DNA of 15,654 bases, from NCBI GenBank assembly GCA_043750125.1, contig JAYVCD010000230.1, forward strand, positions 1 through 15,654, in the 5' to 3' direction. Under the pieces are notes generated by a model. It was given only the letters and a program-made list of their open reading frames with translations, made no database searches and had not been told where the DNA came from. Origin of the DNA: Archangiaceae bacterium. Its GTDB lineage: Bacteria > Myxococcota > Myxococcia > Myxococcales > Myxococcaceae. Each line of letters begins with the position of its first letter. The stretch's first letter is position 1. Shown here one piece after another: positions 1-14,113 of the stretch. Both the position numbers and the translations under genes were made by a program.

Positions 1-286
1 CCGCGGTCACCGTCTGGATCGACCACCGCAAGACACCCGGAACGATCGTGATCTGCGGAATGCTCGAGGCCGGAAGCGCGCTGCGGACATCGACGAAAGC
101 GCCCTTGCTGAGCACGATCACCCGCGTCGGGTCGCCCGTCGCCCCAAGCATTCGCCACACGCCGCCACCAATCGCGCCGATCGCGGCCAGAGAAAACGAC
201 ACCAGGGCCATGCTCACCAGAAGCAGCGCGGTGACCAGGCGTCGCGAAAGCAGGCCCCGAACCACGTAGATGAACAGGGGAGACAT
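1..286 (-). CDS. ABC transporter permease, FtsX/MacB family (N-terminal part; runs off the window start)
   Basis: Not in the ORF track. My translation from ATG at 286 is MSPLFIYVVRGLLSRRLVTALLLVSMALVSFSLAAIGAIGGGVWRMLGATGDPTRVIVLSKGAFVDVRSALPASSIPQI..., open to position 1. It has the basic 'LLSRR' + TM1 + 'GDPTRVIVLSKGA' pattern typical of MacB-type permease N-termini. The ATG directly follows the TGA of the upstream permease. Confidence 0.85.
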   Translation of the reverse strand, partial: MSPLFIYVVRGLLSRRLVTALLLVSMALVSFSLAAIGAIGGGVWRMLGATGDPTRVIVLSKGAFVDVRSALPASSIPQITIVPGVLRWSIQTVTA

Positions 287-1423
287 TCAAGCGCCTCGCA
301 GCGCATTCAGGGGGTTTGCATACGACGCACGCAGCGCAGGAATCAGCGACAGCGCCGTCCCCAACAACAGGCCGAACGCGGCGGAAATCAGGCAGACGTC
401 CCACGACACGACGACGTTGAACGCGATGACGTGAAGCCCATACCTGAAGAGCAGAAAGGGGATGAGGCAGCCCCAAAGGACCCCCGGAGCCGCAAGCAGC
501 AACGACTCAGCCACGATCATCCGAAACAAATCTCCCCGCTCGAACCCAATCGCCCGCAACGTCGCCAACTCGAGCCGCCGTTCGTCGATCGAAAGCGAGA
601 TGAAGGTCAGCATCACGACGATCACCAGGAACACGGCGAGCAGCCCGGTTCCGCGGATGACCGAGATGGCGAGGGCCGCTCCGCCGTAGATCATCGACTT
701 GGTCTCTTCCATCTTCCAGTACACGAAGGGGCGTCCTGGAAACTCCGTCCGCAACTGCTGCATCACGAGCTCCCGGGCCTCGACGCTGTCGGCGAGAATC
801 CAAGTGGCCCACGAAGTGAGCGGCTTGTTCAAGTACGACTCGACGTAGTCCGGGTGAACGTAGATCGGCTCGAAGTCGCCCATTCGGTTGTTCACGACCG
901 CGCTGATGACGAACTCAGGGTCTTTGAGGCCCTTCTCTTTGTACTCGGGCCAGAGCGGGAGCGTCACCGACTGACCTTCTTTCCAATTCATCCGCTCGGC
1001 CGTGGGCAGGGTGACGATGATCCCATTTCTGATCCGCTCCCACTTCTCGAACTGCTGAGGGGAGACGATCGTCTGGTCGCGCCAGATCTTGATGTAACTG
1101 GAAGTGGTCGCGTCGCAGACCGAGGACTGATGTTGGTTTTCTTTGGTCGAACAGCCGCCTTCCGTCATGAACCCCATGCTCTCGACGTGCGGCAGCCGCT
1201 CGATGCGCTTGAGCTCGGCCCTCGAGAACGAAGCCTTCTGAGCCCACGCCCCGACCCGGAAGACCCTTCGATCGAAGTCGTCGGTCTGGGTCCAGCGCAG
1301 GGCGGTCTCGACCCCTACCAACATCGTCACCAGCGCGAACAGCACCGTCGTCGGAGCAACGATGTAGAGCAACGACCAGCGTCGACGAATGAAGCTGATC
1401 CAGGCCAACCGCAACGTGCTCAT
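287..1423 (-). CDS. ABC transporter permease, FtsX/MacB family
   Basis: N-terminal 'LRLAWISFIRRRWS' + TM, a large periplasmic domain, the FtsX signature 'SIDERRLELATLRAIGF...IVAESLLLA', further TMs and C-terminal 'PALRASYANPLNALR'. Start placed at ATG 1423 (MSTLRLAW); the ORF track extends to 1507. Confidence 0.92.
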   Translation of the reverse strand: MSTLRLAWISFIRRRWSLLYIVAPTTVLFALVTMLVGVETALRWTQTDDFDRRVFRVGAWAQKASFSRAELKRIERLPHVESMGFMTEGGCSTKENQHQSSVCDATTSSYIKIWRDQTIVSPQQFEKWERIRNGIIVTLPTAERMNWKEGQSVTLPLWPEYKEKGLKDPEFVISAVVNNRMGDFEPIYVHPDYVESYLNKPLTSWATWILADSVEARELVMQQLRTEFPGRPFVYWKMEETKSMIYGGAALAISVIRGTGLLAVFLVIVVMLTFISLSIDERRLELATLRAIGFERGDLFRMIVAESLLLAAPGVLWGCLIPFLLFRYGLHVIAFNVVVSWDVCLISAAFGLLLGTALSLIPALRASYANPLNALRGA

Positions 1424-1531
1424 GAAGGTCCCGAAAAAATCCGCGCGCTCACTCGAGCAGCCCTGCGCTCGAAGTCCAGTGGCCAAATCATCGAGGAAAA
1501 GTACCACGGTGCCCCAGGCATCACCGAGCTT

Positions 1532-2404
1532 TCAGAAGGAAGCGTTGCTCATCCGAACGTGAATTCTTCGAGTGGGATCGGTGAAGGGCATCCGTCCGTG
1601 CATCATGCGGGTGTTGTCGATGAGCAGGACCTCGCCGGCACGCCATTTGATCGGTTCGGTGAGGTCGTGGGCGAGCGCAAGCAGGTCCCACTTCAGCTCT
1701 TCGGTGATGGGTTCCCCGTCCTCGAAAAACATCGAGCATTGATCGTGGACGATCACGCTGTTCACGAACGCCAGCTCGGTTCCCCAGCGCGTGGGCAGCG
1801 CCGCGTCGGTGACGTACTCGATGTCGATGGTGCCATCGGTGTTGAGCCGGTGGCTCACCCCCTCGAGCTTGCCCAGCGCCTGCGAGGCTTCAGTCGCGCC
1901 AGTCCAGGCGCCGGTATAAACGGGCCACACATTCCGGTCTGCCCGGGGAAATGAGTACTTGATCCGTTTCTTCGAGAAGCGCGCCTTGAGCTCAGCTCCC
2001 ATTTTCGACCACAGCTCCACCCCGTCAGCCAGAAACGTCTCGCCGCCCTTCGACGCCGGATGAACGCACAAAAACCAGAGCAACTCGGGCCGCAGCGGGC
2101 TGTAGCTGAGCTCGCAGTGATGGCCGACCAGCTTGTTGCCGAGGTTGACGGTGCTGGTCCGACCCTCATCGGAGACCATGTCGCGGTGCGAGCCCGCGTG
2201 CAGGTTTGTGACAAACGAATGGCCGAAACTTTCCGTCAGCGTCTTGAACCCATCACCGTCGATCTCGAAGCCACTGAACAGGACGGCCCCTGACGTTTTC
2301 AGAAGCTCGATGATCTCGGGTCGCGGCAGTGCACTCACGGTCGCGGCGCCACGCGCGCGGACCACGGTGCCCCAGCGACGGGTCAGAGGCGCGGCGTCGA
2401 ACAT
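1532..2404 (-). CDS. TauD/TfdA (clavaminate synthase/SyrP-like) Fe(II)/2-oxoglutarate-dependent dioxygenase
   Basis: H-x-E motif 'HCELSY...PELLWFLCVHPASKGGETFLADG', distal His and 2OG-binding Arg region 'WRAGEVLLIDNTRMMHGRMPFTDPTRRI'. Starts 6 nt after the cyclodeaminase stop, with GGGA as SD. Confidence 0.93.
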   Translation of the reverse strand: MFDAAPLTRRWGTVVRARGAATVSALPRPEIIELLKTSGAVLFSGFEIDGDGFKTLTESFGHSFVTNLHAGSHRDMVSDEGRTSTVNLGNKLVGHHCELSYSPLRPELLWFLCVHPASKGGETFLADGVELWSKMGAELKARFSKKRIKYSFPRADRNVWPVYTGAWTGATEASQALGKLEGVSHRLNTDGTIDIEYVTDAALPTRWGTELAFVNSVIVHDQCSMFFEDGEPITEELKWDLLALAHDLTEPIKWRAGEVLLIDNTRMMHGRMPFTDPTRRIHVRMSNASF

Positions 2405-2410
2405 AGTCCC

Positions 2411-3535
2411 CTACCGCTTGGCGAGCCCGGCTACCGACCGCAGGCCCGCGCTCGCCTCTTCGGCTTCGACCACTGAATAGGGATCCAAGGGGTCGGAGGG
2501 CATGGCCTCGATCGCAAGCGCGGTGCCCAGGCCCAGGCGCGCCGCGTGCGCGAGAATCATCTCGAGCACCACCTTGTCTTCGAGCGCGAACCCGGTCGAA
2601 TCGAACAACGTCAATTTTTCGCGGTATTCGGTGAACCGGTCTGGAGTCTTGACCAGCTGCGCGAGGCTGGGGCCAATCAGATCGTCGGGAATCTGCTGGC
2701 ATTCCCCTTCGAGCATCGCCTGGGGGCGAAAGTCTGGGCAGACCAGGGCGCGCTCGACCACCTCGCGCGGACATTCGGTTTTTCCAGGGACGTCCGAGCC
2801 GACCGAGTTGATGTGCACCCATGGCTTGAGATCCCGACCCTCGAAAACCGGCCCTTTCCCGACGGGCACGCTGGTGGCGGTCACCAGAATGTCGGCCTCG
2901 GCCTCGATCGTCTTGAGCTCCTCGGGCCGGACCTCGAGCTTCAGGAAGGCAACCCGCTGAGCAAACGACTTCTTCGCCGCCGGGTCAGTATCGTGAACCA
3001 GCACCTTGTCGATCGTGCACACCCTCGAGAGCGCATGCAGCTGGGTGACCGCCTGGGCCCCGCAGCCAATCATCCCCACAGTGCGGCTTTTGGGGTGGGC
3101 CAGAATCCGGGTGGCGATCGCTGAAGCCGCCCCGGTGCGCAACGCAGTGAGAAACACCCCGTCGGAAAGCGCCATCAGGTGACCGGTCTGGACGTCGTAC
3201 TGGCTGGTGGTCGCCAGAATGGTCGGGATCCCGTGCTCCCTTGGGTTGTTGGGGTTGTAGCTGACCGTCTTGATGATCGCCGTTCCCCCCAGTTCCATCA
3301 CCGGCATCCACTCGAGCAGGCCGCCGGTCAGCTCTTGAGGAGCGCCCCGCGCGATCCCGCTTCCCCGCCGCCGGTCGTAGTTGAACCCGTCGCGCTTGCG
3401 GACCTCTGTGATGCGCGAGTCGTAGTTGCGCAGCGCCTCGGTGAGCGCGGTGATCAGCTCGTCCATCAAACCGTCGCGTCCGACCTCGGTGACGATCCGT
3501 GCGATGTCGCTTCGGGCAACCACCAACGTATTCAT
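2411..3535 (-). CDS. Ornithine cyclodeaminase/mu-crystallin family protein, most like L-lysine cyclodeaminase (RapL/PipA/TubZ type, pipecolate-forming)
   Basis: Motifs 'EWMP', 'KTVSYNP', 'LTALRTGAASA', NAD-binding 'IGCGAQAVTQLHALSRV', 'TATSVPVGKGP', 'EGECQQ', 'FDSTG' and C-terminal 'DPLDPYS', plus N-terminal 'VGRDGLMDELI', resemble RapL-type lysine cyclodeaminases as I recall them. Start ATG 3535 has AAAGGT upstream; the ORF-track extension to 4039 overlaps the opposite-strand gene. Confidence 0.9.
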   Translation of the reverse strand: MNTLVVARSDIARIVTEVGRDGLMDELITALTEALRNYDSRITEVRKRDGFNYDRRRGSGIARGAPQELTGGLLEWMPVMELGGTAIIKTVSYNPNNPREHGIPTILATTSQYDVQTGHLMALSDGVFLTALRTGAASAIATRILAHPKSRTVGMIGCGAQAVTQLHALSRVCTIDKVLVHDTDPAAKKSFAQRVAFLKLEVRPEELKTIEAEADILVTATSVPVGKGPVFEGRDLKPWVHINSVGSDVPGKTECPREVVERALVCPDFRPQAMLEGECQQIPDDLIGPSLAQLVKTPDRFTEYREKLTLFDSTGFALEDKVVLEMILAHAARLGLGTALAIEAMPSDPLDPYSVVEAEEASAGLRSVAGLAKR

Positions 3536-3566
3536 CGGCACCTTTCCACGCGATCGACGGTGCTCA

Positions 3567-3575
3567 AACCTAGCA
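3567..3575 (-). promoter_or_regulatory. Possible extended -10 element (TGC-TAGGTT) for the cyclodeaminase-dioxygenase-permease operon
   Basis: The minus strand reads TGCTAGGTT (TGn + TANNNT) about 30 nt upstream of the ATG, in the divergent intergenic region. Motif match only. Confidence 0.3.
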
Positions 3576-3701
3576 GACCGGTCGCTTTCTCCGGACGGAA
3601 TGACGGCCTTCCTTGTGGGGCAAGGTGGGCGGTCGATCGCCAACAGCCCGGTATATGTTTGGGCCGAACGAAGTCGGCGCCCCCTGGAGTAGCCGCTGCC
3701 C

Positions 3702-4901
3702 ATGACTGAAGCAGAACGGACTGGAGCGCTGGAACAGGCGGGGCTCAACGTCCTCAATCTGGACCCCAACGAGATCGCCCTGGATCTGCTGACGGACGTC
3801 CCAGCACGCATCTGCGTGGCCGAGGTGGCAGCGGCAACCGCCCGGGCCGCTCGGGGGGGAGCACCCAGCCCCGATCTGCAGGCACTCGCCGAACGCCTGT
3901 ACGGCCCCGCGCGGTACGTCTTTTCCGCCAAGGGCAGATCCGCCGAATTGGCCCTGGTCGCGGCCGCCGTCGAGCCGGGGTCGACGGTCTTGACCCACGG
4001 CCTGTTCCGCACCACGGCGCGCGCGCTCACCGAACGCAAAGCGACCCTCGAAATGATTCCTCGCCGCGCCTCGGACCATGGCCGCGCCGACGTTGATCTC
4101 GAGTGGCTGTCCGCTCGACTGGCCCAGGGAAGAGTCGACGCCGTCTACCTCGAGCCGAGCAACAACGCGCTCGGCGGGTGGCCGCTCTCGCTCGAGAACG
4201 CCGAGGCGGTGGCAGCCGCTTGCCGCACAGCGAGCTGCCGCCTGCTGCTCGACGCGACCCGGCTGCTCTCCAATGTCTGCGCGCTCGGACTGCCCATCGG
4301 GGAGACCACAAAACGTTTCATCGCGCTGGCCGATGGCTTTACCGTCAGCTGCGCGAAAGAGCTGCTGGTCCCCCTGGGTTCACTGGTCGGTGTTCGAGAT
4401 CTGCCGACCCAGCGAAAAGTCTGGTCCCACTGCTTCGAAGAAGGGACGTTGCTTGATCCGCTCGAGGCGAAGGTCGCGCTCGCCAGCGGCATCGAGGCCA
4501 CTCTGGATTTTCGGCATCTGAAGTCGCGCGCCCGCCAACTCAAAATGCTCGCCGACGAGCTTCGCGCCCGCGAGATTCCCTTCCTCGAACCGATCGGGGC
4601 CCACGCCGTCTACGTGGTCGTGGGGCCGCAGTTGGGCGAAGGCCCGTTGCGCTCACACGCGCTGCAAGGACTGCTGTACCGAGCCGGTGGAGTGCGGGCG
4701 CTGATTCATGGCAACCCCATTCTCAAGACCCGGCTGATGCGGCTGACCCTCACGCTTGGCAGATTCAGCGATCAAGACATCACCTCGATCGCTCAGGCCG
4801 TGAAGGCACTTTTCGAGCGCGCCTTCGAGGCGCCCGAGCTTGAGGCCCGCCCCGGAGACAGCGTTCACGAGGCGTACTTCTCACGCTACGCCCGGGCTTG
4901 A
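3702..4901 (+). CDS. Divergent tryptophanase/tyrosine phenol-lyase-like PLP-dependent enzyme (beta-eliminating lyase family)
   Basis: '[20 protein letters not shown]' (cf. AGYNTFLL..IYIDLLTD), 'KGRSAE' (QGRGAE), '[13 protein letters not shown]' (NLAGGQPVSMAN), 'LDATR', PLP-lysine motif 'SCAKE' (K219; cf. SGKKD/SAKKD), 'PIGAHAVYV' and 'MRLTL'. GGAG upstream. Confidence 0.85.
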
Positions 4902-4928
4902 TTCCCGCTCAGCAGCACCAAAGTCGGT

Positions 4929-5624
4929 TCAGGAGTTCGCCGACTCTCTGAAGACCAGGCCCTTCTCGAGGTGGAGCACCCGGTTGGCGCGCTTGGCGGC
5001 CTTCGGGTCGTGGGTCACCATCACGATCGTCTTCCCGAGCTTCTTGTTGAGCAGCAGCAACAGCTCGAGGATCTCATCGGCCGACTTGGCATCGAGATCG
5101 CCCGTCGGCTCGTCGGCGAGGATCACCGTCGGGTCGGCAATGATGCTGCGCGCGATCGCCACCCGTTGTTCCTGGCCACCGGACAACATGCTGGGAAAGT
5201 GCTTCGAGCGATCCGACAGGCCGACCAATTCGAGCGCGGTCTGGACCCGACGGCGGCGCTCCTTGCTGCTGAGCTTGAAGAGCAACAGCGGCACTTCGAC
5301 ATTTTGTGCCGCGTTCAATACGGCCAGCAGGTGGTAGCGCTGAAAAATGAAGCCGACATGGTTGCTGCGCCATTTGCACAGCGCGCTGTCGCTCATCGTG
5401 GCTGGCTCGTAGCTTCCAATCGAAACCTTGCCCGACGAGGGGCGGTCGAGCCCAGCGATCAGATTCAATAGCGAACTCTTGCCCGAGCCCGAAGGGCCCA
5501 TCAACGCGACAAAATCTCCCGCCGGAACGTTCAGGTTCACTCCATCGAGAACCTTGATCTGCTGGTCGCCTCGCACGAACGACTTGGTGACCTGCTCGAA
5601 CTTGACGGGAAGCGCTTCGGCCAT
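4929..5624 (-). CDS. ABC transporter ATP-binding protein, LolD/MacB-NBD-like
   Basis: Walker [10 protein letters not shown]-loop 'VGFIFQ', signature LSGGQEQR, Walker B '[11 protein letters not shown]', H-loop 'VMVTHD'. Strong SD GGAGGAG 7 nt upstream. Confidence 0.96.
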
Positions 5625-5730
5625 TTCTGGGCTCCTCCATCGGCTTGGGCCGACGAATGCGACCCGCGCACTTTGTCAGTTCCCCTCTGAGGTTCCAACA
5701 GTTCTTCCCCCTCCCCGCCGCACATTTCGT

Positions 5731-5874
5731 CGCGCCGTCCGACCGGCGTTTCCCGCCTTCCGACCGGCGTTTCCCGCCTTCCGACCGGCGTTCCGCGCCG
5801 TCCGACCGGCGTTTCCCGCCGCCCAACCGGCGTTCAGCGCCGTCCGACCGGCGTTTCCCGCCGCCCGACCGGCG
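5731..5874. repeat. 21-bp tandem repeat, about 6.9 copies, consensus CCGACCGGCGTT(TCC/CCG/CAG)CGCC(TT/GT/GC)
   Basis: Full units start at 5739, 5760, 5781, 5802, 5823 and 5844, with partial units at 5731 and 5865. The first 12 bp are nearly invariant (one G>A). Lies between divergent genes. Confidence 0.95.
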
Positions 5875-6042
5875 GGACGATGTGTGCGGCCCCGGCACCG
5901 CCTCAATCGTCCTCCCCGTTCGAGCAACCAATCTGATGTGGGCAACGGGGCCATGGTACGGTTCGGGAAATCGATTTTCGGCAGATCCGCGCCATGGGCT
6001 CATCGCCTCCGCTGTGGAAAAGTCGTTGAAGAGGGCAAACCT

Positions 6043-7215
6043 TTGCGTTCACTTTCTTTGCTGGGATCCGCCGCGCTGCTTCTCCTGGCCCTCGCCGCAA
6101 CGGGCTGCTCGGATAAGGACAACGACAATCCAGGCGCCGACTGCCCCCACATGGCGGGCAGGCTCTGCGACGGAGGTCGGGAGTTCATCGACGAAGATGC
6201 GGGGACGATCGTCCGGCGCGACGGCGGCGGCGAGTTGCTGTGGGGCGAGGGCGCCCTGCTCGCGATCTCGACCTCCATCCCCGGGCAGGAAAAGTTGGTG
6301 CTCTACGACATCGATGCCGACAAGCGGGTCACCATCAACTACGCCGACATCAACCTCGGAATGGGGCTCGCCGGCGTCACCCAGGGCCTCACCTGGAACG
6401 CCGCTCGCACCTATCTGTACATTGCTCAGAGCGGACCCAACTCGGTCCTCTTCTTCAGCATGGGCACCAAAGACATCGCCTGGGACTACCCGTTTTCGGA
6501 CACCACCCAGCTGAGCCGACCCATTCTCAGCGCAGACAACAAGAGCCTTTATCTCGCCAGCTCGACCGACAAGGCTTTGTACAAGATAGACGTCCCCGGA
6601 AGGCTGCTGGCGCAGAAAGTCAAAGACACCGATGTGCCCGCACTGTCCTCACCCATCTCGGTCTCGTACGGGGCGGGCTCGGTGTTGGTGGGCTCGGCCC
6701 TCGGAAACCGTCTGCTCGCGTTCAACGACTCGACCACCCTCTCGTACGATACCGCCAAGTCCGTCGATCTGGTGGACGGCGCGAACCAGGGTGCCGGCCC
6801 GACCAGCTGCATCGCCACCAAAGACGCCGCCTTCTACTGCGCGGCCTCAGGAGCGGGCGCGGGCATCTGGTACGTGAAGCCCGGCAGCCCGGCGAAGCTG
6901 GTCATTCCGGGCGTCACCTCGGTGAGCGCAATGGCGCTCTCGTCGCTGAACGAGAAGCTCTGGGTCGGCACCGGCAGCAGCCTGAACGCCTACTGGATTG
7001 CCCGTGACCCGCAGGCCCCGTTGTTCCTGGGCAGCGTGGCGGCAGGCGCGCCAATCTTCGACATCGCCAGCTCTGCCGACGGGCTGTGGGTCTTCGCTTC
7101 CGTGCCGACCGCGGACGCGCTGCTCAAGGTCCGCTCGACCGACCTGAAGCTGGTCAAGACCTTCACTGACCTGGGCCGACCCCGAGCGCTGGCGGTTGGG
7201 CCGTTCCCCAATTAG
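6043..7215 (+). CDS. Lipoprotein with YncE/YVTN-like beta-propeller
   Basis: TTG at 6043 preceded by GAGGG gives the signal peptide 'MRSLSLLGSAALLLLALAATG-C' (lipobox). Repeated blade motifs ('LSADNKSLYLAS', 'IASSADGLWVFAS', 'TYLYIAQSGPNSV', 'PRALAV'). The start is uncertain (ATG 5953 is an alternative). Confidence 0.75.
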   Translation: MRSLSLLGSAALLLLALAATGCSDKDNDNPGADCPHMAGRLCDGGREFIDEDAGTIVRRDGGGELLWGEGALLAISTSIPGQEKLVLYDIDADKRVTINYADINLGMGLAGVTQGLTWNAARTYLYIAQSGPNSVLFFSMGTKDIAWDYPFSDTTQLSRPILSADNKSLYLASSTDKALYKIDVPGRLLAQKVKDTDVPALSSPISVSYGAGSVLVGSALGNRLLAFNDSTTLSYDTAKSVDLVDGANQGAGPTSCIATKDAAFYCAASGAGAGIWYVKPGSPAKLVIPGVTSVSAMALSSLNEKLWVGTGSSLNAYWIARDPQAPLFLGSVAAGAPIFDIASSADGLWVFASVPTADALLKVRSTDLKLVKTFTDLGRPRALAVGPFPN

Positions 7216-7218
7216 CCC

Positions 7219-8064
7219 GTGAACCAGCCGGGAGAGGCAGTGCTGACGGCTGCGATCGACGACGCGCGGCGCTCTTTTGGCCCGCGCCTTCTGGCGGGGT
7301 ACGCGCTGGGCAGCCTGGCTCACGGGGGCTTCAGCGCCGAGCTGAGCGACGTGGACCTGGGCCTGGTGCTCGCTGATCCTCTCAGCGATTCTGACGGGCT
7401 TGCAGTCGCTGATCTGGTTGCCCGCTTCAAGGCCACCGGAGATCCCCTCGCGGGTCGCCTTTCGGTCTTCTGGGGTTCGAAAGCCTCGCTGACCGGAAAA
7501 TCGACGCTGGGCAGGTTCCCCCCGGTCGATCGCCTCGACCTGCTCCAGTACGGGCGGCTGCTCGAGGGCAAGGACCTGCGCGAAGGCCTGCCTGTTCCCA
7601 CCCAACGCGAGCTGGTGGTGGCCGCGGCCTGGCTCGGCCTCGAGGTGCTCGACCGACCCGATGTCCGCGCCGAGCTCATCAGCCCCGAAGTCCTCTACGC
7701 CCATGGCCCCAGGCCGCTGACCAAGCGGGTCCTCTTTCCAGTTCGCTTCCTCTACACCGCCCGCACCGGGAAGATTGGACCCACCGACGCGGCGGTCGAA
7801 CACTACCTGTCCTCGGCAAAGCCGGCCCAGAGCCTCGTCGCTGCCGCGCTCAGATGGCGGGAAACCACTCCTTCCCGGGACGAAGCGATCTCGCTCTTGA
7901 GCCAGGGCTTGAAGCCGCTGTACCTCGAGTTCATCGACGATTATCTGGCCCGCGTCCGCGCGTACGGCGAGGTGCAGCTGGCTTCCTTGCTCGAAGGGTG
8001 GCGGGCGCGCATCGCCGCCGAGCTGCCCGGAGATGCGGGCGTACCTGCCGTGGGTGTCCGGTGA
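7219..8064 (+). CDS. Pol-beta superfamily nucleotidyltransferase domain protein (aminoglycoside adenylyltransferase-like architecture)
   Basis: N-terminal 'LAGYALGSLAHGGFSAELSDVDLGLV' matches the hG[S]x9-13DhD NTase motif and is followed by a helical C-terminal domain. GTG start is 3 nt after the previous stop. Confidence 0.8.
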   Translation: MNQPGEAVLTAAIDDARRSFGPRLLAGYALGSLAHGGFSAELSDVDLGLVLADPLSDSDGLAVADLVARFKATGDPLAGRLSVFWGSKASLTGKSTLGRFPPVDRLDLLQYGRLLEGKDLREGLPVPTQRELVVAAAWLGLEVLDRPDVRAELISPEVLYAHGPRPLTKRVLFPVRFLYTARTGKIGPTDAAVEHYLSSAKPAQSLVAAALRWRETTPSRDEAISLLSQGLKPLYLEFIDDYLARVRAYGEVQLASLLEGWRARIAAELPGDAGVPAVGVR

Positions 8065-8801
8065 GCGCGCCCGAAGCCAAGGACCCCAAAAGCGTCTCGC
8101 TGTTCGCCACCTGTCTGGTCGACGCGCTCTACCCCCGGGTGGGCGCAGCGGTCGTTCAGACCCTCGAGCGCGCGGGCTGTGAGGTCGACCTCCCCGAGGG
8201 CCAGACCTGCTGCGGGTTGCCTTTCTACAACAACGGGTACGTCGCCGAGGCCACGCGACTGGCCCAGAACACCATCGCCGCGCTCGAAGGACAGCAGCCG
8301 GTGGTCGTTCCGTCCGGCTCTTGCGCGTGGATGATGCGGTCGATCTACCCCCGCCTGCTGCCCGCAGGGGAAGCGTTCTCCAAGCGGGTCGTCGAGTACT
8401 CCGAGCTGCTCTCGAAGCTCCCGGGCTGGACCGCGCGCACCCCGCCCGCGGCTGGAAAAGTGACCTACCACCCGTCTTGCCACCTGCTCCGGGGGCTGCA
8501 CGTCGAGAAAGAGCCGAAGAGCGTGCTCGGAAGAATCGAAGGCCTTTCGTTGTGCCCGATGGATCGTGAAAAGGACTGTTGTGGCTTTGGAGGCTCCTTC
8601 TCCGTCCGCTACCCCGAGGTGTCGACCAGCATGCTCGAGGACAAGCTCGCCAGTGCCCAACGGACAGGGGCCGAAACCATCGTCGTGACCGACGTAGGGT
8701 GCCTGATGCAGCTCGAGGGAGGCCAGCGGCGACGTGAAGCAGGCCCCCGCGTCATTCACCTCGCCGAGCTGCTCGAGGAAAGCGCCCCCAAAGACCGATG
8801 A
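8061..8801 (+). CDS. lutA: Lactate utilization protein A (LutA/LldE/YkgE), Fe-S CCG-domain protein
   Basis: 'VSLFATCLVDALYP', 'QTCCGLP..NNG', 'PSGSC', 'YHPSCH', 'CCGFGGSFSV', 'DVGCLMQL', 'IHLAELL'. GTG at 8061 overlaps the upstream TGA (GTGA). Confidence 0.93.
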   Translation: MSAPEAKDPKSVSLFATCLVDALYPRVGAAVVQTLERAGCEVDLPEGQTCCGLPFYNNGYVAEATRLAQNTIAALEGQQPVVVPSGSCAWMMRSIYPRLLPAGEAFSKRVVEYSELLSKLPGWTARTPPAAGKVTYHPSCHLLRGLHVEKEPKSVLGRIEGLSLCPMDREKDCCGFGGSFSVRYPEVSTSMLEDKLASAQRTGAETIVVTDVGCLMQLEGGQRRREAGPRVIHLAELLEESAPKDR

Positions 8802-10207
8802 AAAGCCGGCCCCACGAAGGAGTCTACGCCCGGGCCCGAGAGGCCGTAGGCGACCCCCAGCTGCGCGACGCGGTCTGGACCAGCACCCAGCGGTTCCTCA
8901 ATGGTCGAAACCGCGCTTTCGAGCAGCTGCCGCAGCAAGGCTCGCCGATGCGGGACCTCGGCCGCGAAATCCGCATTCGCACGCTGAAGAATCTCGACGT
9001 CCACCTCGAGCGTTTCGTGGCCTCGTGCAAGCGAAACGGAACGCAGGTGCACTTCGCCCGGGACGCGGCCGAAGCGGCCCGTACGATCTGCGACCTGGCT
9101 GCCGGCAAAGGCCTGGTCATCAAGTCCAAGTCGATGGCGACCGAAGAGATTCACCTCAACGAGGCGCTTCAGAAACGGGGCATCGAGGTCGTCGAGACAG
9201 ATCTGGGCGAGTGGGTCATTCAGCTCGCGGGCGAGACTCCGGCGCACATCATCGCTCCGGCGCTGCACAAGACCCGCGAGCAGTTCGCCGAGCTGATCGG
9301 CCGGGAAGTCGGTCGCACCGTCTCGACCGAACCTGAAAACCTGGTCGCCGAGGCCCGGGCCCGGCTGCGGCGCGACTTCGTGGCCGGGGCGGTCGGCATC
9401 TCGGGGGTGAACTTCGGAGTCGCCGAAACCGGGACGCTGGTGTTGGTGACCAACGAAGGCAATGGCCGGCTGGTCACCTCGGGCCCCAAACTTCACATCG
9501 CCCTGATGGGAATAGAAAAGCTGGTCCCCACCCTGGACGAGGCGTTTGCGCTGCTGCGAATTCTGCCGCGCAGCGCCGCGGGTCAGAAGCTCACGTCCAA
9601 CACCACGTTCATTTCGGGGCCCCGGCGCGCGGACGAGGTCGACGGGCCGGACGAGGTGCACGTGGTGCTGCTCGACAACGGGCGCATCGATTACCTTTCG
9701 ACCGACCGGTGGGAATCGCTGCTCTGCATTCGCTGCGGCGCGTGTCTCAATGTCTGCCCGGTCTACAAGCGCATCGGCGGCCACGCCTACGGCTCGACCT
9801 ACCAGGGGCCGATTGGATTGTTGGCGACTCCCATGGTTCGGCCGGAAGACCCCGAAGCGATCACCGACCTGCCTCACGCCTCTTCGTTGTGCGGCGCCTG
9901 CCATGAGATTTGCCCGGTCAAAATCGACATTCCCCGCATGATCCTTTCTGTCCGCGCGGAAGCCGTGAGCCGGGGGTGGACGGGCACCAAAGAGCGGGCG
10001 GTGTTTGCGCTGGCCGCCGCGGTTCTTTCCCGGCCGCGGCTCTATCGGGTGCTGGTGCGGGTCGCCGGGCTGTTCAGTCGGCTGCTCGGAGCCACCCACT
10101 TCAAGGCCCTGCCTTCTTTCTTGTCAGGTTGGACCTCGACGCGAGATCTACCGGTGGTCGCCCCTGAGTCTTTTCGAAGTTGGTGGCAATCGAGGAAGGG
10201 ACCTTAA
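8798..10207 (+). CDS. lutB: Lactate utilization protein B (LutB/LldF/YkgF), LUD domain + 4Fe-4S
   Basis: 'KSKSMATEEIHLN', 'ETDLGEWVIQL...PAHIIAPALH', 'TNEGNGRL', 'CIRCGACLNVCPVY', 'SSLCGACHEICPVKIDIP'. ATGA overlap with lutA. Confidence 0.96.
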   Translation: MKSRPHEGVYARAREAVGDPQLRDAVWTSTQRFLNGRNRAFEQLPQQGSPMRDLGREIRIRTLKNLDVHLERFVASCKRNGTQVHFARDAAEAARTICDLAAGKGLVIKSKSMATEEIHLNEALQKRGIEVVETDLGEWVIQLAGETPAHIIAPALHKTREQFAELIGREVGRTVSTEPENLVAEARARLRRDFVAGAVGISGVNFGVAETGTLVLVTNEGNGRLVTSGPKLHIALMGIEKLVPTLDEAFALLRILPRSAAGQKLTSNTTFISGPRRADEVDGPDEVHVVLLDNGRIDYLSTDRWESLLCIRCGACLNVCPVYKRIGGHAYGSTYQGPIGLLATPMVRPEDPEAITDLPHASSLCGACHEICPVKIDIPRMILSVRAEAVSRGWTGTKERAVFALAAAVLSRPRLYRVLVRVAGLFSRLLGATHFKALPSFLSGWTSTRDLPVVAPESFRSWWQSRKGP

Positions 10208-10208
10208 G

Positions 10209-10889
10209 GTGGCAGAGCCGGCAGAGGCCTTCTTCGCCCGGCTGCGTGCCTCGCTTGCGCGCTCGGGCGATTGGCGACAGCCCGAAGATCCCGACGCGGC
10301 CCGTAGCCCCGAGCCCTTCGTGCTGCCCGTCGACTCCGAAGGGGCCGTCGAAAATTTCGTTCGAGAATTCACTGCCGTCAGCGGTGAGGTGCACCGGGTG
10401 ACCGCGGCGGGGCTGACCGCGAAGATCGTCGAGCTCGCGGTGGCCCGGTCGGCGAAGTCGTACGCCAGCTGGGCCACCCCGCTGCTCAGTGACCCGGCCC
10501 TTCATCAGGCGCTGGCGGGCGCAGGGGTGACCCGGCTTCCGCTGGGCACCGATGCGGCGCGAGAAGGGTTACGGAACCTGGAAATCGGGCTGTCGGAACC
10601 CGACTGTGGTGTGGCCGAGACCGGAAGCCTGGTGTTGATTCCCGGGCCGGGGCGATCGCGCCTGGCGACGGCGATGGCGCGCTATCACTTCGCGGTTCTG
10701 CCCGTAGCCCGGGTGGTGACCAGCCTGACTGAGGTTCCAGCCCGGCTGCGCGCGGCCAAAGATGGCAACGGCCAGATGCGCAGCGACGCGGTGCTGGTCA
10801 CTGGCCCCAGCCGCACCGGCGACATCGAAGGTCAGATCGTCCTCGGGGCCCACGGGGCGCTCGAGCTGCACCTGTTGCTCGTCGGGTAG
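10209..10889 (+). CDS. lutC: Lactate utilization protein C (LutC/LldG/YkgG), LUD domain
   Basis: 'GVAETGSLVL', 'R..TAMARYHFAVL', 'VTGPSRTGDIEGQIVLGAHG'. GTG start at 10209 follows AGGAAGG and the lutB stop. Confidence 0.92.
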   Translation: MAEPAEAFFARLRASLARSGDWRQPEDPDAARSPEPFVLPVDSEGAVENFVREFTAVSGEVHRVTAAGLTAKIVELAVARSAKSYASWATPLLSDPALHQALAGAGVTRLPLGTDAAREGLRNLEIGLSEPDCGVAETGSLVLIPGPGRSRLATAMARYHFAVLPVARVVTSLTEVPARLRAAKDGNGQMRSDAVLVTGPSRTGDIEGQIVLGAHGALELHLLLVG

Positions 10890-10891
10890 CG

Positions 10892-12052
10892 CTACCGCTC
10901 GATTCCCCAAACCTCGGCCGCGTTTTTCCACATCAGCCGTTCCCGGTCGTCTCGCGAGACGTCCAACCCGGTCACCAGCCCGCTGAAGACGCGGTGGGAA
11001 TTCGGCCAATCATTGCCATGGTGGGGAAAGTCGCTGCTCCAGGCCATGTTGCGAATTCCGACTTCGTGGCGCAGCTTGACCCCGATCTTGTCTCTCATGA
11101 ACGTCAGCATCCAGTGGTCGCGGAAGTAGTCGCTCGGCCACCGCTTGAGCTTCATCTCGGTCCACTTGCGGTTTCGCTCGAACCGGTCGTCCATCAGATC
11201 CAGAACGTGCGGGACCCAACCCACGCCGACCTCGGCCCCGACGAACTTCAGCTTCGGAAATCGGTCGTGCACGCCTGAGAAAATGACCTGCAGCATCGGG
11301 TCGGGAAAAGAGGTGAAGAAACAGATGCCATGCCAGGCGAGCGCGGCCATCTGCTGCGAGCCGTCGTTCTTGGCCGGATCTTTGTCTTTCTTCGGGACTT
11401 CGGTGAGCGCCGCGCTTTGACCTGCCTTCAGGCCGACGTGGATGCAAATCACCATCCCCATCTCTTCGGCCACGGCCCAGAACTTGTCGTCTTCCACCGA
11501 AATTCGGTCTTCCCCGCTGGGCCAGGTCTTGAGCACCATGCCCCGGCACCCTTTCTCTTTCACCCGGTGGAGCTCGGCGATCGCGTCGGTGATGCCGGTG
11601 TCGGGAATCTGGGCCACGCCGATCAAGCGCTTGGGGTCCGCCTTACAAAAGCCATCCAACAAGAAGTCGTTGTACGCCTGCACTCCCGCCAGCGCGGCAT
11701 CCCGGCTGCGATTGCGCATGTTCATCCAATAGAGCAGCGCTCGCATCGGCGTGAACTGAACGGCTGCCGAGATCCCGTCTTGATCCATCGCGAGCAATCG
11801 CGCCGCGCCGTCATAGACCGCCGGAGGAATCGTCTCGCCGTACCGAAGCCCGGTATGACGAACGCTTTCTCCCATGTGGCTGACGATCCCCATGCTCCCG
11901 TAACGGCCGGGCTCGTAGGCCCAGGCATCGCCTCCGTCGGCGTCACGAACCAGCTTGGGGGCCAATTCCAGATACTTCTTGGGAAGCCATCGTTCCCAGA
12001 GATCTTTGGGTTCAGCGGTGTGTTGATCTGCATCGATGAGGAATTCGCTCAT
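10892..12052 (-). CDS. Amidohydrolase family protein (Amidohydro_2, metal-dependent TIM barrel)
   Basis: 'IDADQH', 'RLLAMDQDGI', 'AYNDFL', 'ICIHVG', 'FPKLKFVGAEVGVGWVP', 'WSSDFPH', 'NAAEVWG'. SD GAGAGG upstream. Confidence 0.93.
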   Translation of the reverse strand: MSEFLIDADQHTAEPKDLWERWLPKKYLELAPKLVRDADGGDAWAYEPGRYGSMGIVSHMGESVRHTGLRYGETIPPAVYDGAARLLAMDQDGISAAVQFTPMRALLYWMNMRNRSRDAALAGVQAYNDFLLDGFCKADPKRLIGVAQIPDTGITDAIAELHRVKEKGCRGMVLKTWPSGEDRISVEDDKFWAVAEEMGMVICIHVGLKAGQSAALTEVPKKDKDPAKNDGSQQMAALAWHGICFFTSFPDPMLQVIFSGVHDRFPKLKFVGAEVGVGWVPHVLDLMDDRFERNRKWTEMKLKRWPSDYFRDHWMLTFMRDKIGVKLRHEVGIRNMAWSSDFPHHGNDWPNSHRVFSGLVTGLDVSRDDRERLMWKNAAEVWGIER

Positions 12053-12137: not shown

Positions 12138-12845
12138 TCAATGCAGCAGGTAGCTGATCAGATCTGAAGCGTCCGCGTCAGACAGCCGGTCGGTACTGAA
12201 GGGGGGCATCGTACCTCCGTGCCCGAAGAAGCGGCCATGTCGGATCGCGCGCAGAGCCCCCATGTGCCTGCTTCCGCCGGGCAGGTGGTCCGCCGCGTCA
12301 GTCAGGGCCTCGGGCATCGCCGGCACGACGGCAGCCAGGCGATGGTCCCCGGTGTTCTTCTCCCCGTGGCAGTGATCGCACGCCGCCAGGTAGATCTCTG
12401 CCCCCCGCATCACGTCACCGTTGGGCAACGGAAGCGGCGAGGCGACGATGGTATTCGGCAAAACGTCGGACGCGTTGCCAGGTGACGGGGAAGTCGACGC
12501 CAGGAATTCAAAAAGCGCGCGGGCCGTGGGGTCTTCGCGCTGCAGCGGCTGGCCTTGCATGAAGGAAGTCACGCACAGATTGACCGCCGCCAGCAACTGG
12601 GCCTCGGTGCCTCCCCAATAGGCCTTGCGAAGCGCGGTGCCCGCAAGCGGCGCCCCCGGAAAAATGCGTCTTCCGTCTTCCACGCCCGGGTTGTGGCAGG
12701 TCGCGCAGCTGAAGACGTTCTGACTCGAGGAAGAGAGCGCGGGGGAAGCGAACAGTTCGGCCCCCAGCTCACGCGCCGGTGTCGTCCGTTGCTCGGGGAC
12801 CACACAGCCGGCCAGACACAGGGCGAAGGCGAGGGCTCGAGTCAT
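12138..12845 (-). CDS. Di-heme c-type cytochrome lipoprotein, TsdA/SoxA-like fold
   Basis: Lipobox 'LAGC' (C14). Two CxxCH motifs: CATCH (47-51) and CDHCH (156-160). Extra Cys in 'AVNLCVTSFMQG' and C-terminal 'MPPF...LSDADASDLISYL'. ATGA overlap with the upstream gene. Confidence 0.9.
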   Translation of the reverse strand: MTRALAFALCLAGCVVPEQRTTPARELGAELFASPALSSSSQNVFSCATCHNPGVEDGRRIFPGAPLAGTALRKAYWGGTEAQLLAAVNLCVTSFMQGQPLQREDPTARALFEFLASTSPSPGNASDVLPNTIVASPLPLPNGDVMRGAEIYLAACDHCHGEKNTGDHRLAAVVPAMPEALTDAADHLPGGSRHMGALRAIRHGRFFGHGGTMPPFSTDRLSDADASDLISYLLH

Positions 12846-14113
12846 TGAAGGGGCGGCGGAGGAAAGAGGAGCAGCGTCGACCCCGACAGGCCCGCCGGCA
12901 TCAGGGCCGAGGCGCGCACGGCCCCGGACGCGAGGTTCACTCGAAGCAGGCGCGCGGGATCGCTGTCCCGGCCTGCGCAGACGACCACCGCGTCTTCAGA
13001 GCCAGGCGCATTTGCGAAGGCTGCCGTCGCCTGGCCACAGCTCGAAGGCAGGGCCCAGTCGATCAAGCTGCTCCCGGCAGAGCCGACCACCACGAGATGT
13101 TCGTCATGATTCAACGCCGTTCGGGCGAAGAACGACCGGGTTCCCTGGGTGCTGCCGAACCCCACCGGTCCCACGGTGTCGATCGTCCGGGACGAATCGA
13201 CCGCGCCGGACACCAGGTCGAACGCCCGAAGCTCGTGGCTGGACTGGCACGAAATCCAGACCGTGCGACCATCGGGGTCGAGGGTGACCGCCGCAGGTCC
13301 GTACGCGGGGGGTGCGAGCGGGTTGACTCCGGGCGTGGTCGTCGGCCGCGTCATCCGCGCGTTGGGGCCGATCGGGATCCGGGTGACCTTGAAGCCCTCG
13401 CCTTCGGGTTCCACCTTCGCCAGGCTGTCTTCGCCCCAACAGGCGACCAGCAGCTGCGATTTTCCGGACGAAAAAGCGGCACCGAGCGGCGCGATGCACG
13501 TCGGCACCACCTGCTTGACGACGAAGGCGGCGGCATCGATCACCGTGACCGGGCTTCGCCATTGGTCCGGGGACACCCGTTCGAGGATCCGCCGCAGGTC
13601 GTAGTGGGTCACGAACAGCAGCGTCCCATCGGGCGAGGCGACGACGTCAGCGGGGTTGGGACCCACGTCGAGGCGGGCGACCACCACTCCATCCGAAGCG
13701 CGCACCTTCACGATCTGCCCGGGCGCCGTCGAATAGCCCTGCGCTGCGCTCACGTCGCCATGTTCGGCATGACCCGACGGCTCGAGGCCCGCACCGGTCA
13801 GAGCCACGAACCAATACCGGCCGTCGGCGCTGGCCACGAGGCGCGACGCTCCGTCTTTTTCGATGGGGTTCCCGCCGACCGGAACTTTCGCCGTGACCGC
13901 GAGCGACACGGGGTCATAGAGCCAAAGCGAATCGTCGTCGCCCAGCACCGCCAACGTCGCGCCGGGCAGCGGGTCAATCACCCTTCGCTCGGGCCAGGGC
14001 TGGGAGAACTCGTAGACGACCGCGACGAGATCTGACGGACGCGGCTGACAGGCCAGGCCGACAGCGAGCAACGCGGCCAAGGGAAGAACGACCTTGGAAG
14101 CACTCCTCAGCAC
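12842..14113 (-). CDS. YncE/YVTN-family beta-propeller lipoprotein
   Basis: Signal peptide ending 'LAVGLA-C'. Blade motifs 'VPVGGNP', 'ASADGRYWFVAL', 'LDVGPNPADVVASPDGTLLFVTH', 'LDPDGRTVWISC'. Confidence 0.88.
   Translation of the reverse strand: MLRSASKVVLPLAALLAVGLACQPRPSDLVAVVYEFSQPWPERRVIDPLPGATLAVLGDDDSLWLYDPVSLAVTAKVPVGGNPIEKDGASRLVASADGRYWFVALTGAGLEPSGHAEHGDVSAAQGYSTAPGQIVKVRASDGVVVARLDVGPNPADVVASPDGTLLFVTHYDLRRILERVSPDQWRSPVTVIDAAAFVVKQVVPTCIAPLGAAFSSGKSQLLVACWGEDSLAKVEPEGEGFKVTRIPIGPNARMTRPTTTPGVNPLAPPAYGPAAVTLDPDGRTVWISCQSSHELRAFDLVSGAVDSSRTIDTVGPVGFGSTQGTRSFFARTALNHDEHLVVVGSAGSSLIDWALPSSCGQATAAFANAPGSEDAVVVCAGRDSDPARLLRVNLASGAVRASALMPAGLSGSTLLLFPPPPLQ

Follow-up and report, generated by a model that had tools for sequence, protein, structure and literature searches.

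The first 5,624 nt of a contig from the metagenome-assembled genome (MAG) of an uncultured myxobacterium (Myxococcota) encode a lysine cyclodeaminase (LCD)-type enzyme, a TauD-family dioxygenase, a stand-alone pyridoxal 5'-phosphate (PLP) enzyme with the fold of tyrosine phenol-lyase (TPL) and tryptophanase, and subunits of an ATP-binding cassette (ABC) transporter. We judge this block to be probably, by a modest measure, one end of an orphan nonribosomal peptide synthetase (NRPS)-type cluster that continues on a second contig of the same genome, C125. The window, by which we mean the whole stretch of DNA analysed (15,654 nt), is the entire contig C230 of a genome of 6.17 Mb in 460 contigs that is 89% complete, and the flank beyond position 1 is therefore absent from the assembly. 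The nearest public proteins are labelled Myxococcales or Polyangia. Below, C-numbers denote contigs of the source genome (G000), G-numbers genomes, L-numbers loci and P-numbers proteins.

The block would serve precursor supply, tailoring and export at one end of such a MAG cluster, in which a minus-strand operon of the LCD gene, the TauD gene and the genes of permeases 1 and 2 would run across an unassembled gap of ~66 nt into the genes of C125. Homology and kept active-site residues suggest that LCD converts L-lysine to L-pipecolate, a step that we consider well supported by sequence comparison; all of the other chemistry we infer. The TauD-family enzyme may hydroxylate an amino acid or a carrier-bound intermediate, and two adenylating enzymes of C125 would load building blocks and then release or reduce them. 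Carbamoyltransferases would decorate the product, and the ATPase and two FtsX permeases would make up a type VII MacB/LolCDE-like exporter for it. The PLP enzyme may catalyse beta-elimination or beta-replacement on an amino acid with a good leaving group, like the SH domains of polyketide synthases (PKSs), and its service to this pathway is the least certain step of all.

The block contains the following features, in order along the window:

2-286, minus strand: FtsX permease 2, N-terminal 95 codons, cut by the contig end (open reading frame (ORF) calls)
287-1423, minus strand: FtsX permease 1, 378 aa from the ATG at 1423 (PF02687, E = 3e-18)
1532-2404, minus strand: TauD/TfdA-family Fe(II)/2-oxoglutarate (Fe/2OG) dioxygenase, 290 aa (PF02668, E = 1e-31)
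2411-3535, minus strand: LCD-type enzyme of the ornithine cyclodeaminase (OCD)/mu-crystallin family, 374 aa (PF02423, E = 2e-56)
3536-3701, no strand: divergent intergenic region of 166 nt between the LCD operon and the PLP gene (ORF coordinates)
3702-4901, plus strand: short stand-alone PLP enzyme of TPL/tryptophanase fold, 399 aa (Beta_elim_lyase, PF01212, E = 3.5e-26)
4929-5624, minus strand: ABC ATPase of LolD/MacB-N-terminal type, 231 aa (PF00005, E = 4e-32)

All genes named in a preliminary description of this DNA, which was made from the letters alone, were recovered at their positions by ORF calls, Pfam and NCBIfam. The coordinates also agree with its observations that the cyclodeaminase and dioxygenase genes are 6 nt apart (TauD start at 2404, LCD stop at 2411) and that the PLP gene shares a divergent region with LCD. 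The spacings in the LCD-TauD-permease operon include one of 0 nt besides that of 6 nt, and the longest ORF of permease 1 has its start (GTG, position 1507) upstream of the chosen one. The stops of the convergent PLP and ATPase genes are 27 nt apart. The genes for LCD, TauD and the PLP enzyme lie inside the locus of a single transporter, flanked by its ATPase on one side and by its permeases on the other. Third-position GC content is high (0.78-0.82) in the long ORFs of 1-5624. A sigma-70 consensus scan found no site in 3536-3701, a result to be read in light of the fact that this consensus says little for the phylum, and a terminator scan was uninformative. Alignments indicate that the active sites of all three enzymes are intact.

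Proposed precursor supply by the lysine cyclodeaminase

The best solved relative of the window LCD is the Streptomyces pristinaespiralis LCD (SpLCD), matched at full length over residues 1-355 (E = 7e-92), and the match to the ornithine cyclodeaminase of P. putida is weaker (E = 6e-41). The residues of SpLCD that contact NAD and ligand were taken from an excerpt of PMC5935100 and transferred to the window LCD through a HMMER alignment. Twelve of the 12 mapped contacts are kept: R57, E75, K89, T105, R133 and A160 of the window enzyme correspond to R49, E63, K77, T93, R121 and A148 of SpLCD, and Q161, V245, D248, K252, S313 and T314 to Q149, V233, D236, K240, S301 and T302. SpLCD A235, a main-chain contact, is replaced by Ser. 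The enzyme thus resembles SpLCD/PipA (PDB 5gzi/5yu0; RapL-type) in its full-length match, its 12 contacts and the NRPS genes that adjoin most of its relatives, and differs from SpLCD by 12 residues inserted near positions 36-60 and by a C-terminal tail of 19 residues. The gap between the two E-values and the 12 kept contacts bear out the earlier assignment of this cyclodeaminase to the LCD type.

Of the 401 Myxococcota genomes sampled, 68 have LCD matches (E <= 1e-30), and full-length matches with 52-60% identity occur at 50 places. When 16 homolog loci were read at +/-10 kb, NRPS adenylation domains lay within 10 kb in 11 of them. The closest homolog found (G401, 67% identity) has a carboxylic acid reductase (CAR) gene 2.3 kb away, in an NRPS region that spans at least 80 kb, and this CAR is 42% identical to the CAR of C125.

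The same evidence bears on the idea that the enzyme serves catabolism or osmoprotection, cyclising lysine or ornithine to pipecolate or proline among unrelated housekeeping neighbours. Enzymes of the OCD family do serve catabolism, pipecolate can be a compatible solute (according to an excerpt of PMC6397837), and LutABC and other primary-metabolism genes lie to the right of the block. Yet by sequence the enzyme is a much closer relative of LCD than of OCD, its homologs are linked to NRPS genes in most of the loci read, and an LCD copy was found in none of three same-genus genomes, so that we hold this explanation to be very improbable.

Proposed continuation onto contig C125

Permease 2 is cut by the end of the window, and its remainder is most likely a permease fragment at the right end of C125 (C125:13369-14172, minus strand). 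Residues 4-87 of the window fragment align to residues 2-97 of three full-length permeases (L025_380, L029_388 and perm2', a paralog on contig C265), and residues 115-380 of the same three match the C125 fragment. All 267 residues of that fragment align to residues 118-380 of the G213 permease (E = 4e-25), and the implied gap between C230 and C125 is ~22 codons, or ~66 nt. A reciprocal search of this genome for half-permeases returned a single orphan N-terminal half (window 32-277) and a single orphan C-terminal half (on C125); the only complete paralog is on C265. FtsX genes cut on their 5' side occur at the ends of three contigs, C125, C282 and C166; the latter two were rejected as the continuation, since the reference permeases matched them only in the C-terminal FtsX domain. 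On C265, a MatE gene, perm1', perm2' and an adenylation gene follow each other on one strand, which is the order of the proposed join, and the genome therefore already has a permease pair directly followed by an adenylation gene. A search of a set of 5.8 billion proteins, with the 95-aa fragment and longer lengths as query, found no full-length permease 2.

From the permease fragment onward, C125 carries an adenylation-thiolation-thioesterase (A-T-TE) gene, a CAR gene (adenylation-thiolation-reductase, A-T-R), a gene for a second Fe/2OG hydroxylase (WelO5-like, with HxD) and three genes for NodU-type carbamoyltransferases. The stop of the permease fragment overlaps the start of the A-T-TE gene. 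The best named NCBIfam match of the A-T-TE protein is EntF (585 bits, under the curated cut-off), and the CAR matches NF041592 over its full length (1036 bits, likewise under the curated cut-off). Compared with an EntF-type module, the A-T-TE protein has no condensation domain, and its contig is joined to the window only by inference. Adenylation, carrier and release domains are all present on C125, and their contiguity with the tailoring genes of the window depends on the join. The suggestion that the window enzymes supply an assembly line outside the window would fit a continuation onto C125, with its A-T-TE and CAR proteins.

We take the WelO5-like enzyme of C125 to be a hydroxylase because it has the HxD motif. 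It was also considered as a BesD-like lysine halogenase, an assignment rejected for the same motif; its PDB sequence match is not significant (E = 0.49). WelO5-like homologs occur in L044 (G395) and L045 (G176) together with a Zn-dependent alcohol dehydrogenase (ADH), a pyrroline-5-carboxylate (P5C)-reductase-like enzyme, an NRPS with an added condensation domain (C-A-T-TE) and sulfate-activation genes, which is a different cluster; its layout resembles the hydroxylase/ADH/reductase route to methylproline.

Dioxygenase, PLP enzyme and transporter

The dioxygenase scores 111 bits against a cut-off of 27 in PF02668. The preliminary description had cited HxE dioxygenases for comparison, and the triad H96-x-E98...H269 is intact together with the 2OG-binding arginine, R279; in an alignment of 11 sequences H96, H269 and R279 are invariant and E98 is nearly so. 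Its proposed likeness to the hydroxylases VioC and KDO did not hold below the superfamily level. VioC, KDO, AsnO and clavaminate synthase match the dioxygenase only over the last ~35 residues (E = 1e-5 to 1e-3), and because the match is confined to this C-terminal motif the analogy with VioC, KDO and AsnO applies at the superfamily level only. In Foldseek searches with the AlphaFold model (pLDDT 88.8) the top match was At3g21360 (TM 0.80), followed by TfdA-like, IsnB/PvcB/ScoE, TauD and AtsK structures, and the probability against structures of the TauD group was 1.00, in keeping with a jelly-roll fold. VioC, AsnO and KDO were not among the Foldseek matches listed to rank 50; the fold is nearest to that of At3g21360 and of the TauD/TfdA/isonitrile-enzyme group. 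It is also matched by an Atlas cluster in which Condensation and TauD domains are fused.

Close relatives of the dioxygenase are few. A word-based search returned eight TauD-like proteins in all, the query counted, and the best match among the 401 sampled genomes has 36% identity. The three closest homologs retrieved have 60% (Nannocystis radixulma), 46% and 44% identity; those at 60% and 44% directly follow NRPS genes, and the third adjoins a methyltransferase and a hydrolase. A PilZ protein adjoins the TauD homolog in L039 (6669-8540).

A cyclodeaminase paired with an oxygenase has been described elsewhere. According to an excerpt of PMC9271919, SpLCD and the Fe/2OG hydroxylase GetF together convert lysine to cis-3-hydroxypipecolate in an engineered cell, and since this route is established the pairing proposed here has precedent. 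The LCD-GetF route, which provides a GE81112 building block, and the VioC/VioD pair have in common with the window a cyclodeaminase adjoining an Fe/2OG oxygenase, with a PLP enzyme nearby. Unlike VioC, the dioxygenase of the window is predicted from sequence and model to belong to the TauD/TfdA/At3g21360 structural group.

The LCD-GetF precedent (PMC9271919, as excerpted) would also suit an NRPS-independent cassette, the first option of the preliminary description, in which the product of the three window enzymes is a modified cyclic amino acid in free form (a hydroxy- or dehydro-pipecolate, for example) that leaves through the ABC transporter. The nesting of the enzymes within the transporter genes, and a distant TauD (27% identity) beside a 70%-identical ATPase in G213, speak for such a cassette. 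The operon, however, most likely continues into the carrier-protein genes of C125, the close homologs of LCD and TauD are mostly NRPS-linked, and no such cassette was found in the other loci examined, which together make it improbable.

The PLP enzyme is modelled with high confidence (pLDDT 96.1), and in Foldseek it superposes on TPL and tryptophanase at TM 0.84-0.89 (0.86-0.89 for TPL). It keeps the Schiff-base lysine K219 and residues D184, R187, N155, R79, F102 and R347, which correspond to the PLP lysine, Asp214, Arg217, Asn185, Arg100, Phe123 and Arg404 of TPL; the pairing of R347 with the carboxylate arginine R404 was made by aligning with the family profile. Across 27 family members K219, D184, R79, R347, R187 and N155 are invariant. 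Four other TPL residues are replaced, Tyr71 by Ala50, Thr124 by Arg103, Arg381 by His336 and Lys256 by Ala218, and the surroundings of A50 vary among family members. In TPL, Tyr71 is the proton donor to the carbon leaving group. The enzyme thus has the fold and cofactor site of TPL and tryptophanase and lacks the functional residues Tyr71, Thr124 and Arg381. It is also ~55-70 residues shorter than these enzymes, its NCBIfam scores lie far under the cut-offs (131.5 against 285), and a canonical tryptophanase paralog at 27% identity is encoded on C387. The earlier reading of it as a remodelled tryptophanase-like enzyme is upheld by the TPL fold, the kept cofactor residues and the loss of Tyr71 and Arg381.

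A similar pattern is known from assembly lines. An excerpt of PMC3870968 describes Beta_elim_lyase domains embedded in PKSs and NRPSs, including LnmJ, that keep the PLP and carboxylate residues and lose Tyr71 and Arg381, and in an excerpt of PMC8479088 SH domains are cysteine/thiocysteine lyases. Among the Foldseek matches, the SH domain 9cen of the guangnanmycin pathway has the highest identity to the window enzyme (26%; TM 0.82/0.80), and in profile comparison the enzyme matches the SH (thiocysteine-lyase) domain with E = 3e-50. It has in common with the SH domains of leinamycin and guangnanmycin PKSs (LnmJ-SH, 9cen) a compact TPL fold of ~400 residues and the same residue pattern. Unlike them, it stands alone, with no preceding DUF domain and no PKS, in a context without indication of sulfur chemistry. 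Its resemblance to the SH domain lies in fold and residue pattern, and any C-S beta-lyase activity is putative.

A first search found ~33 close members of the family of the PLP enzyme, and an exhaustive search of 1.84 billion proteins (E <= 1e-30) gave 46 representatives; stand-alone representatives number ~40. Relatives of ~900 aa were considered as AMP-ligase fusions and rejected, as they are tandem double TPL domains. The DEAYAGS (Tyr71) motif is retained in the first of the two tandem TPL-like domains of P0071, P0073 and P0075-P0077 (~870-930 aa). PilZ (cyclic di-GMP-binding) domains recur around this family as around that of the dioxygenase: P0026 is a PilZ-TPL-like fusion, and in L032 (2445-4439) an AMP-ligase-PilZ fusion lies directly upstream of the TPL-like gene.

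The transporter genes were compared with orthologous loci of two other genomes. The ATPase has orthologs of 70% (G213) and 65% (G401) identity in pump loci where each of the two FtsX subfamilies of the window is represented by a permease and an OEP gene is present; HlyD is present only in G401, whose locus is without a biosynthetic enzyme. Judged by their gene content, the G213 and G401 loci are tripartite MacAB-TolC-like pumps with unfused subunits. The window has in common with MacAB-TolC and LolCDE type VII systems a LolD/MacB-like ATPase and two FtsX permeases; unlike in MacB, its ATPase is unfused, and biosynthetic genes are wedged between ATPase and permeases. No HlyD or OEP gene was found in the window or on C125. 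Permease 1 has weak LolCE/DevC/ADOP matches in NCBIfam, and a MacB_PCD domain was detected in perm2' of C265 and not in permease 1. The two permeases, earlier described as MacB-type, are of FtsX type; they are separate subunits, arranged as in LolCE/DevC, rather than ATPase fusions, and the second is a fragment only. In L025 (on contig C59 of G213; 5371-11020), the distant TauD (27%) and a Glu/Leu/Phe/Val dehydrogenase adjoin the 70%-identical ATPase, a permease and an OEP gene.

Rightward of the block lie a lipobox-like ORF, LutABC, an amidohydrolase, a cytochrome c and an aminotransferase, none of them obviously biosynthetic. Between the start of the ABC ATPase gene and the next plus-strand ORF there is a tandem repeat (5733-5874; 21-nt unit, 6.8 copies, 85% matches). 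The lipobox-like string LLLLALAATGC lies within the ORF at 5428-7215, and three long ORFs have no Pfam match (12842-14113, minus strand; 5962-7215, plus strand; 6847-7803, minus strand).

Weighing one cluster against a mosaic of pathways

Several results weigh against a single cluster that spans C230 and C125. The join itself is drawn from protein complementarity and paralogous gene order. A k-mer comparison (21-127 nt) found no overlap of either end of the window with the end of any other contig, and no bridging sequence occurred among the Logan contigs of four runs compared with window 1-2000. These runs, all of one study, cover the window at a depth of 3.7-6.8. Two of the four are possible sources of this DNA, and two reach 41 nt past position 1; with depth low there and two runs extending this far, the contig break looks like a coverage gap, a point in favour of the join. 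The specificity code of the A-T-TE protein, DVWHISLVDK, is one that we take to be serine-like rather than pipecolate-like. An imino-acid code is present in neither adenylating enzyme of the composite cluster, and unlike in NRPS and PKS pathways that use an LCD, no pipecolate-type adenylation domain was seen in it. An imino-acid-like code, DVQYVAQ.., occurs in this genome solely on C268, whose adenylation domain is a possible taker of the pipecolate. This domain belongs to an NRPS at a contig end (L066, 6647-9355) and is preceded by a CmlA-like diiron beta-hydroxylase and a module for N-methylation.

Further points of this kind come from other genomes. The cluster was seen in one organism only, and the combination of its genes was in no other locus examined. 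Three genomes of the same genus are without these genes and also without the window LutB, and for this last reason the genus-level absence is weak evidence for an island. The GC content of the block (0.634) shows no anomaly against that of the genome (0.649). The recurring neighbour of TPL-like genes is an AMP-ligase of the AMP-binding_C_3 type, found in five of seven readable loci, and this genome encodes such a ligase on C90 (L065, 8772-13799), together with an HMGL-like enzyme and a 460-aa family-less gene, beside a C-A-T-C NRPS. Between the HMGL-like and 460-aa partners on C90 the TPL-like gene is absent; it sits in the window instead. The AMP-ligases in L002, L003, L030 and L032 are 44-46% identical to the C90 ortholog, and the fifth is 35% identical. 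An HMGL-like enzyme occurs in two of those TPL-like loci (as an AMP-ligase fusion in L002) and a family-less protein of ~450 aa in one; another TPL-like locus carries a divergent ABC ATPase instead, and in L001 (of the G401 genome) the order is a 449-aa gene, the TPL-like gene and an HMGL-like gene.

The proposal that the three enzymes form a conserved unit found no support in the comparison of loci. The 16 LCD-homolog loci yielded neither TauD nor TPL-like homologs, the three closest TauD loci neither LCD nor TPL-like homologs, and the seven TPL-like loci neither LCD nor TauD homologs, so that the three were never syntenic elsewhere as far as searched, an outcome that the preliminary description had named as refuting its proposal. 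In the full-text literature, whose coverage excludes subscription-only papers, we found no description of a cluster with this gene combination.

The main rival is a mosaic, in which adjacent genes belong to different pathways: LCD and TauD would feed an NRPS elsewhere in the genome, the PLP enzyme would act in trans with the C90 partners, and the ABC genes would encode a general tripartite efflux pump. It would account for the homologs of C90 genes that flank the TPL-like gene in other genomes (L001, and the AMP-ligases of L002, L003, L030 and L032), for the C90 partners that adjoin a C-A-T-C NRPS without a TPL-like gene, and for the imino-acid-like adenylation code on C268. The orthologous ABC loci point the same way, being pumps with OEP (and HlyD in G401) and, in G401, no biosynthetic enzyme, as does the lack of three-enzyme synteny elsewhere. 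Against a mosaic stand the position of the three enzymes between ATPase and permeases, the 6-nt and 0-nt spacings in the LCD-TauD-permease operon, the overlap of the C125 permease stop with the A-T-TE start, and the recurrence of the LCD-CAR pairing in G401. We regard the mosaic as unlikely on this balance, and the free-standing cassette and plain catabolism as less likely still.

A more specific pathway can also be drawn, although we think it quite doubtful. An SH/TPL-like lyase would have moved away from its AMP-ligase and HMGL-like partners and been paired with TauD, by the logic of VioC/VioD, on a lysine or pipecolate scaffold. An unusual cyclic or dehydro amino acid made in this way would pass to the condensation-free A-T-TE protein and the CAR, be carbamoylated several times and leave through the LolCDE-like exporter, and the product might belong to a small, undescribed class of carbamoylated piperidines.

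Orphan clusters are common in myxobacterial MAGs. If the join and the pathway are true, the present one would be compact (~20 kb) and amenable to synthesis and expression, and it would combine a pipecolate-forming enzyme, a CAR, a condensation-free A-T-TE protein, two Fe/2OG oxygenases and three carbamoyltransferases. The PLP enzyme, for its part, points to a small, unstudied family of stand-alone lyases with the TPL fold, which resemble the PKS thiocysteine-lyase domain, lack the proton donor of TPL and come mostly from Myxococcota.

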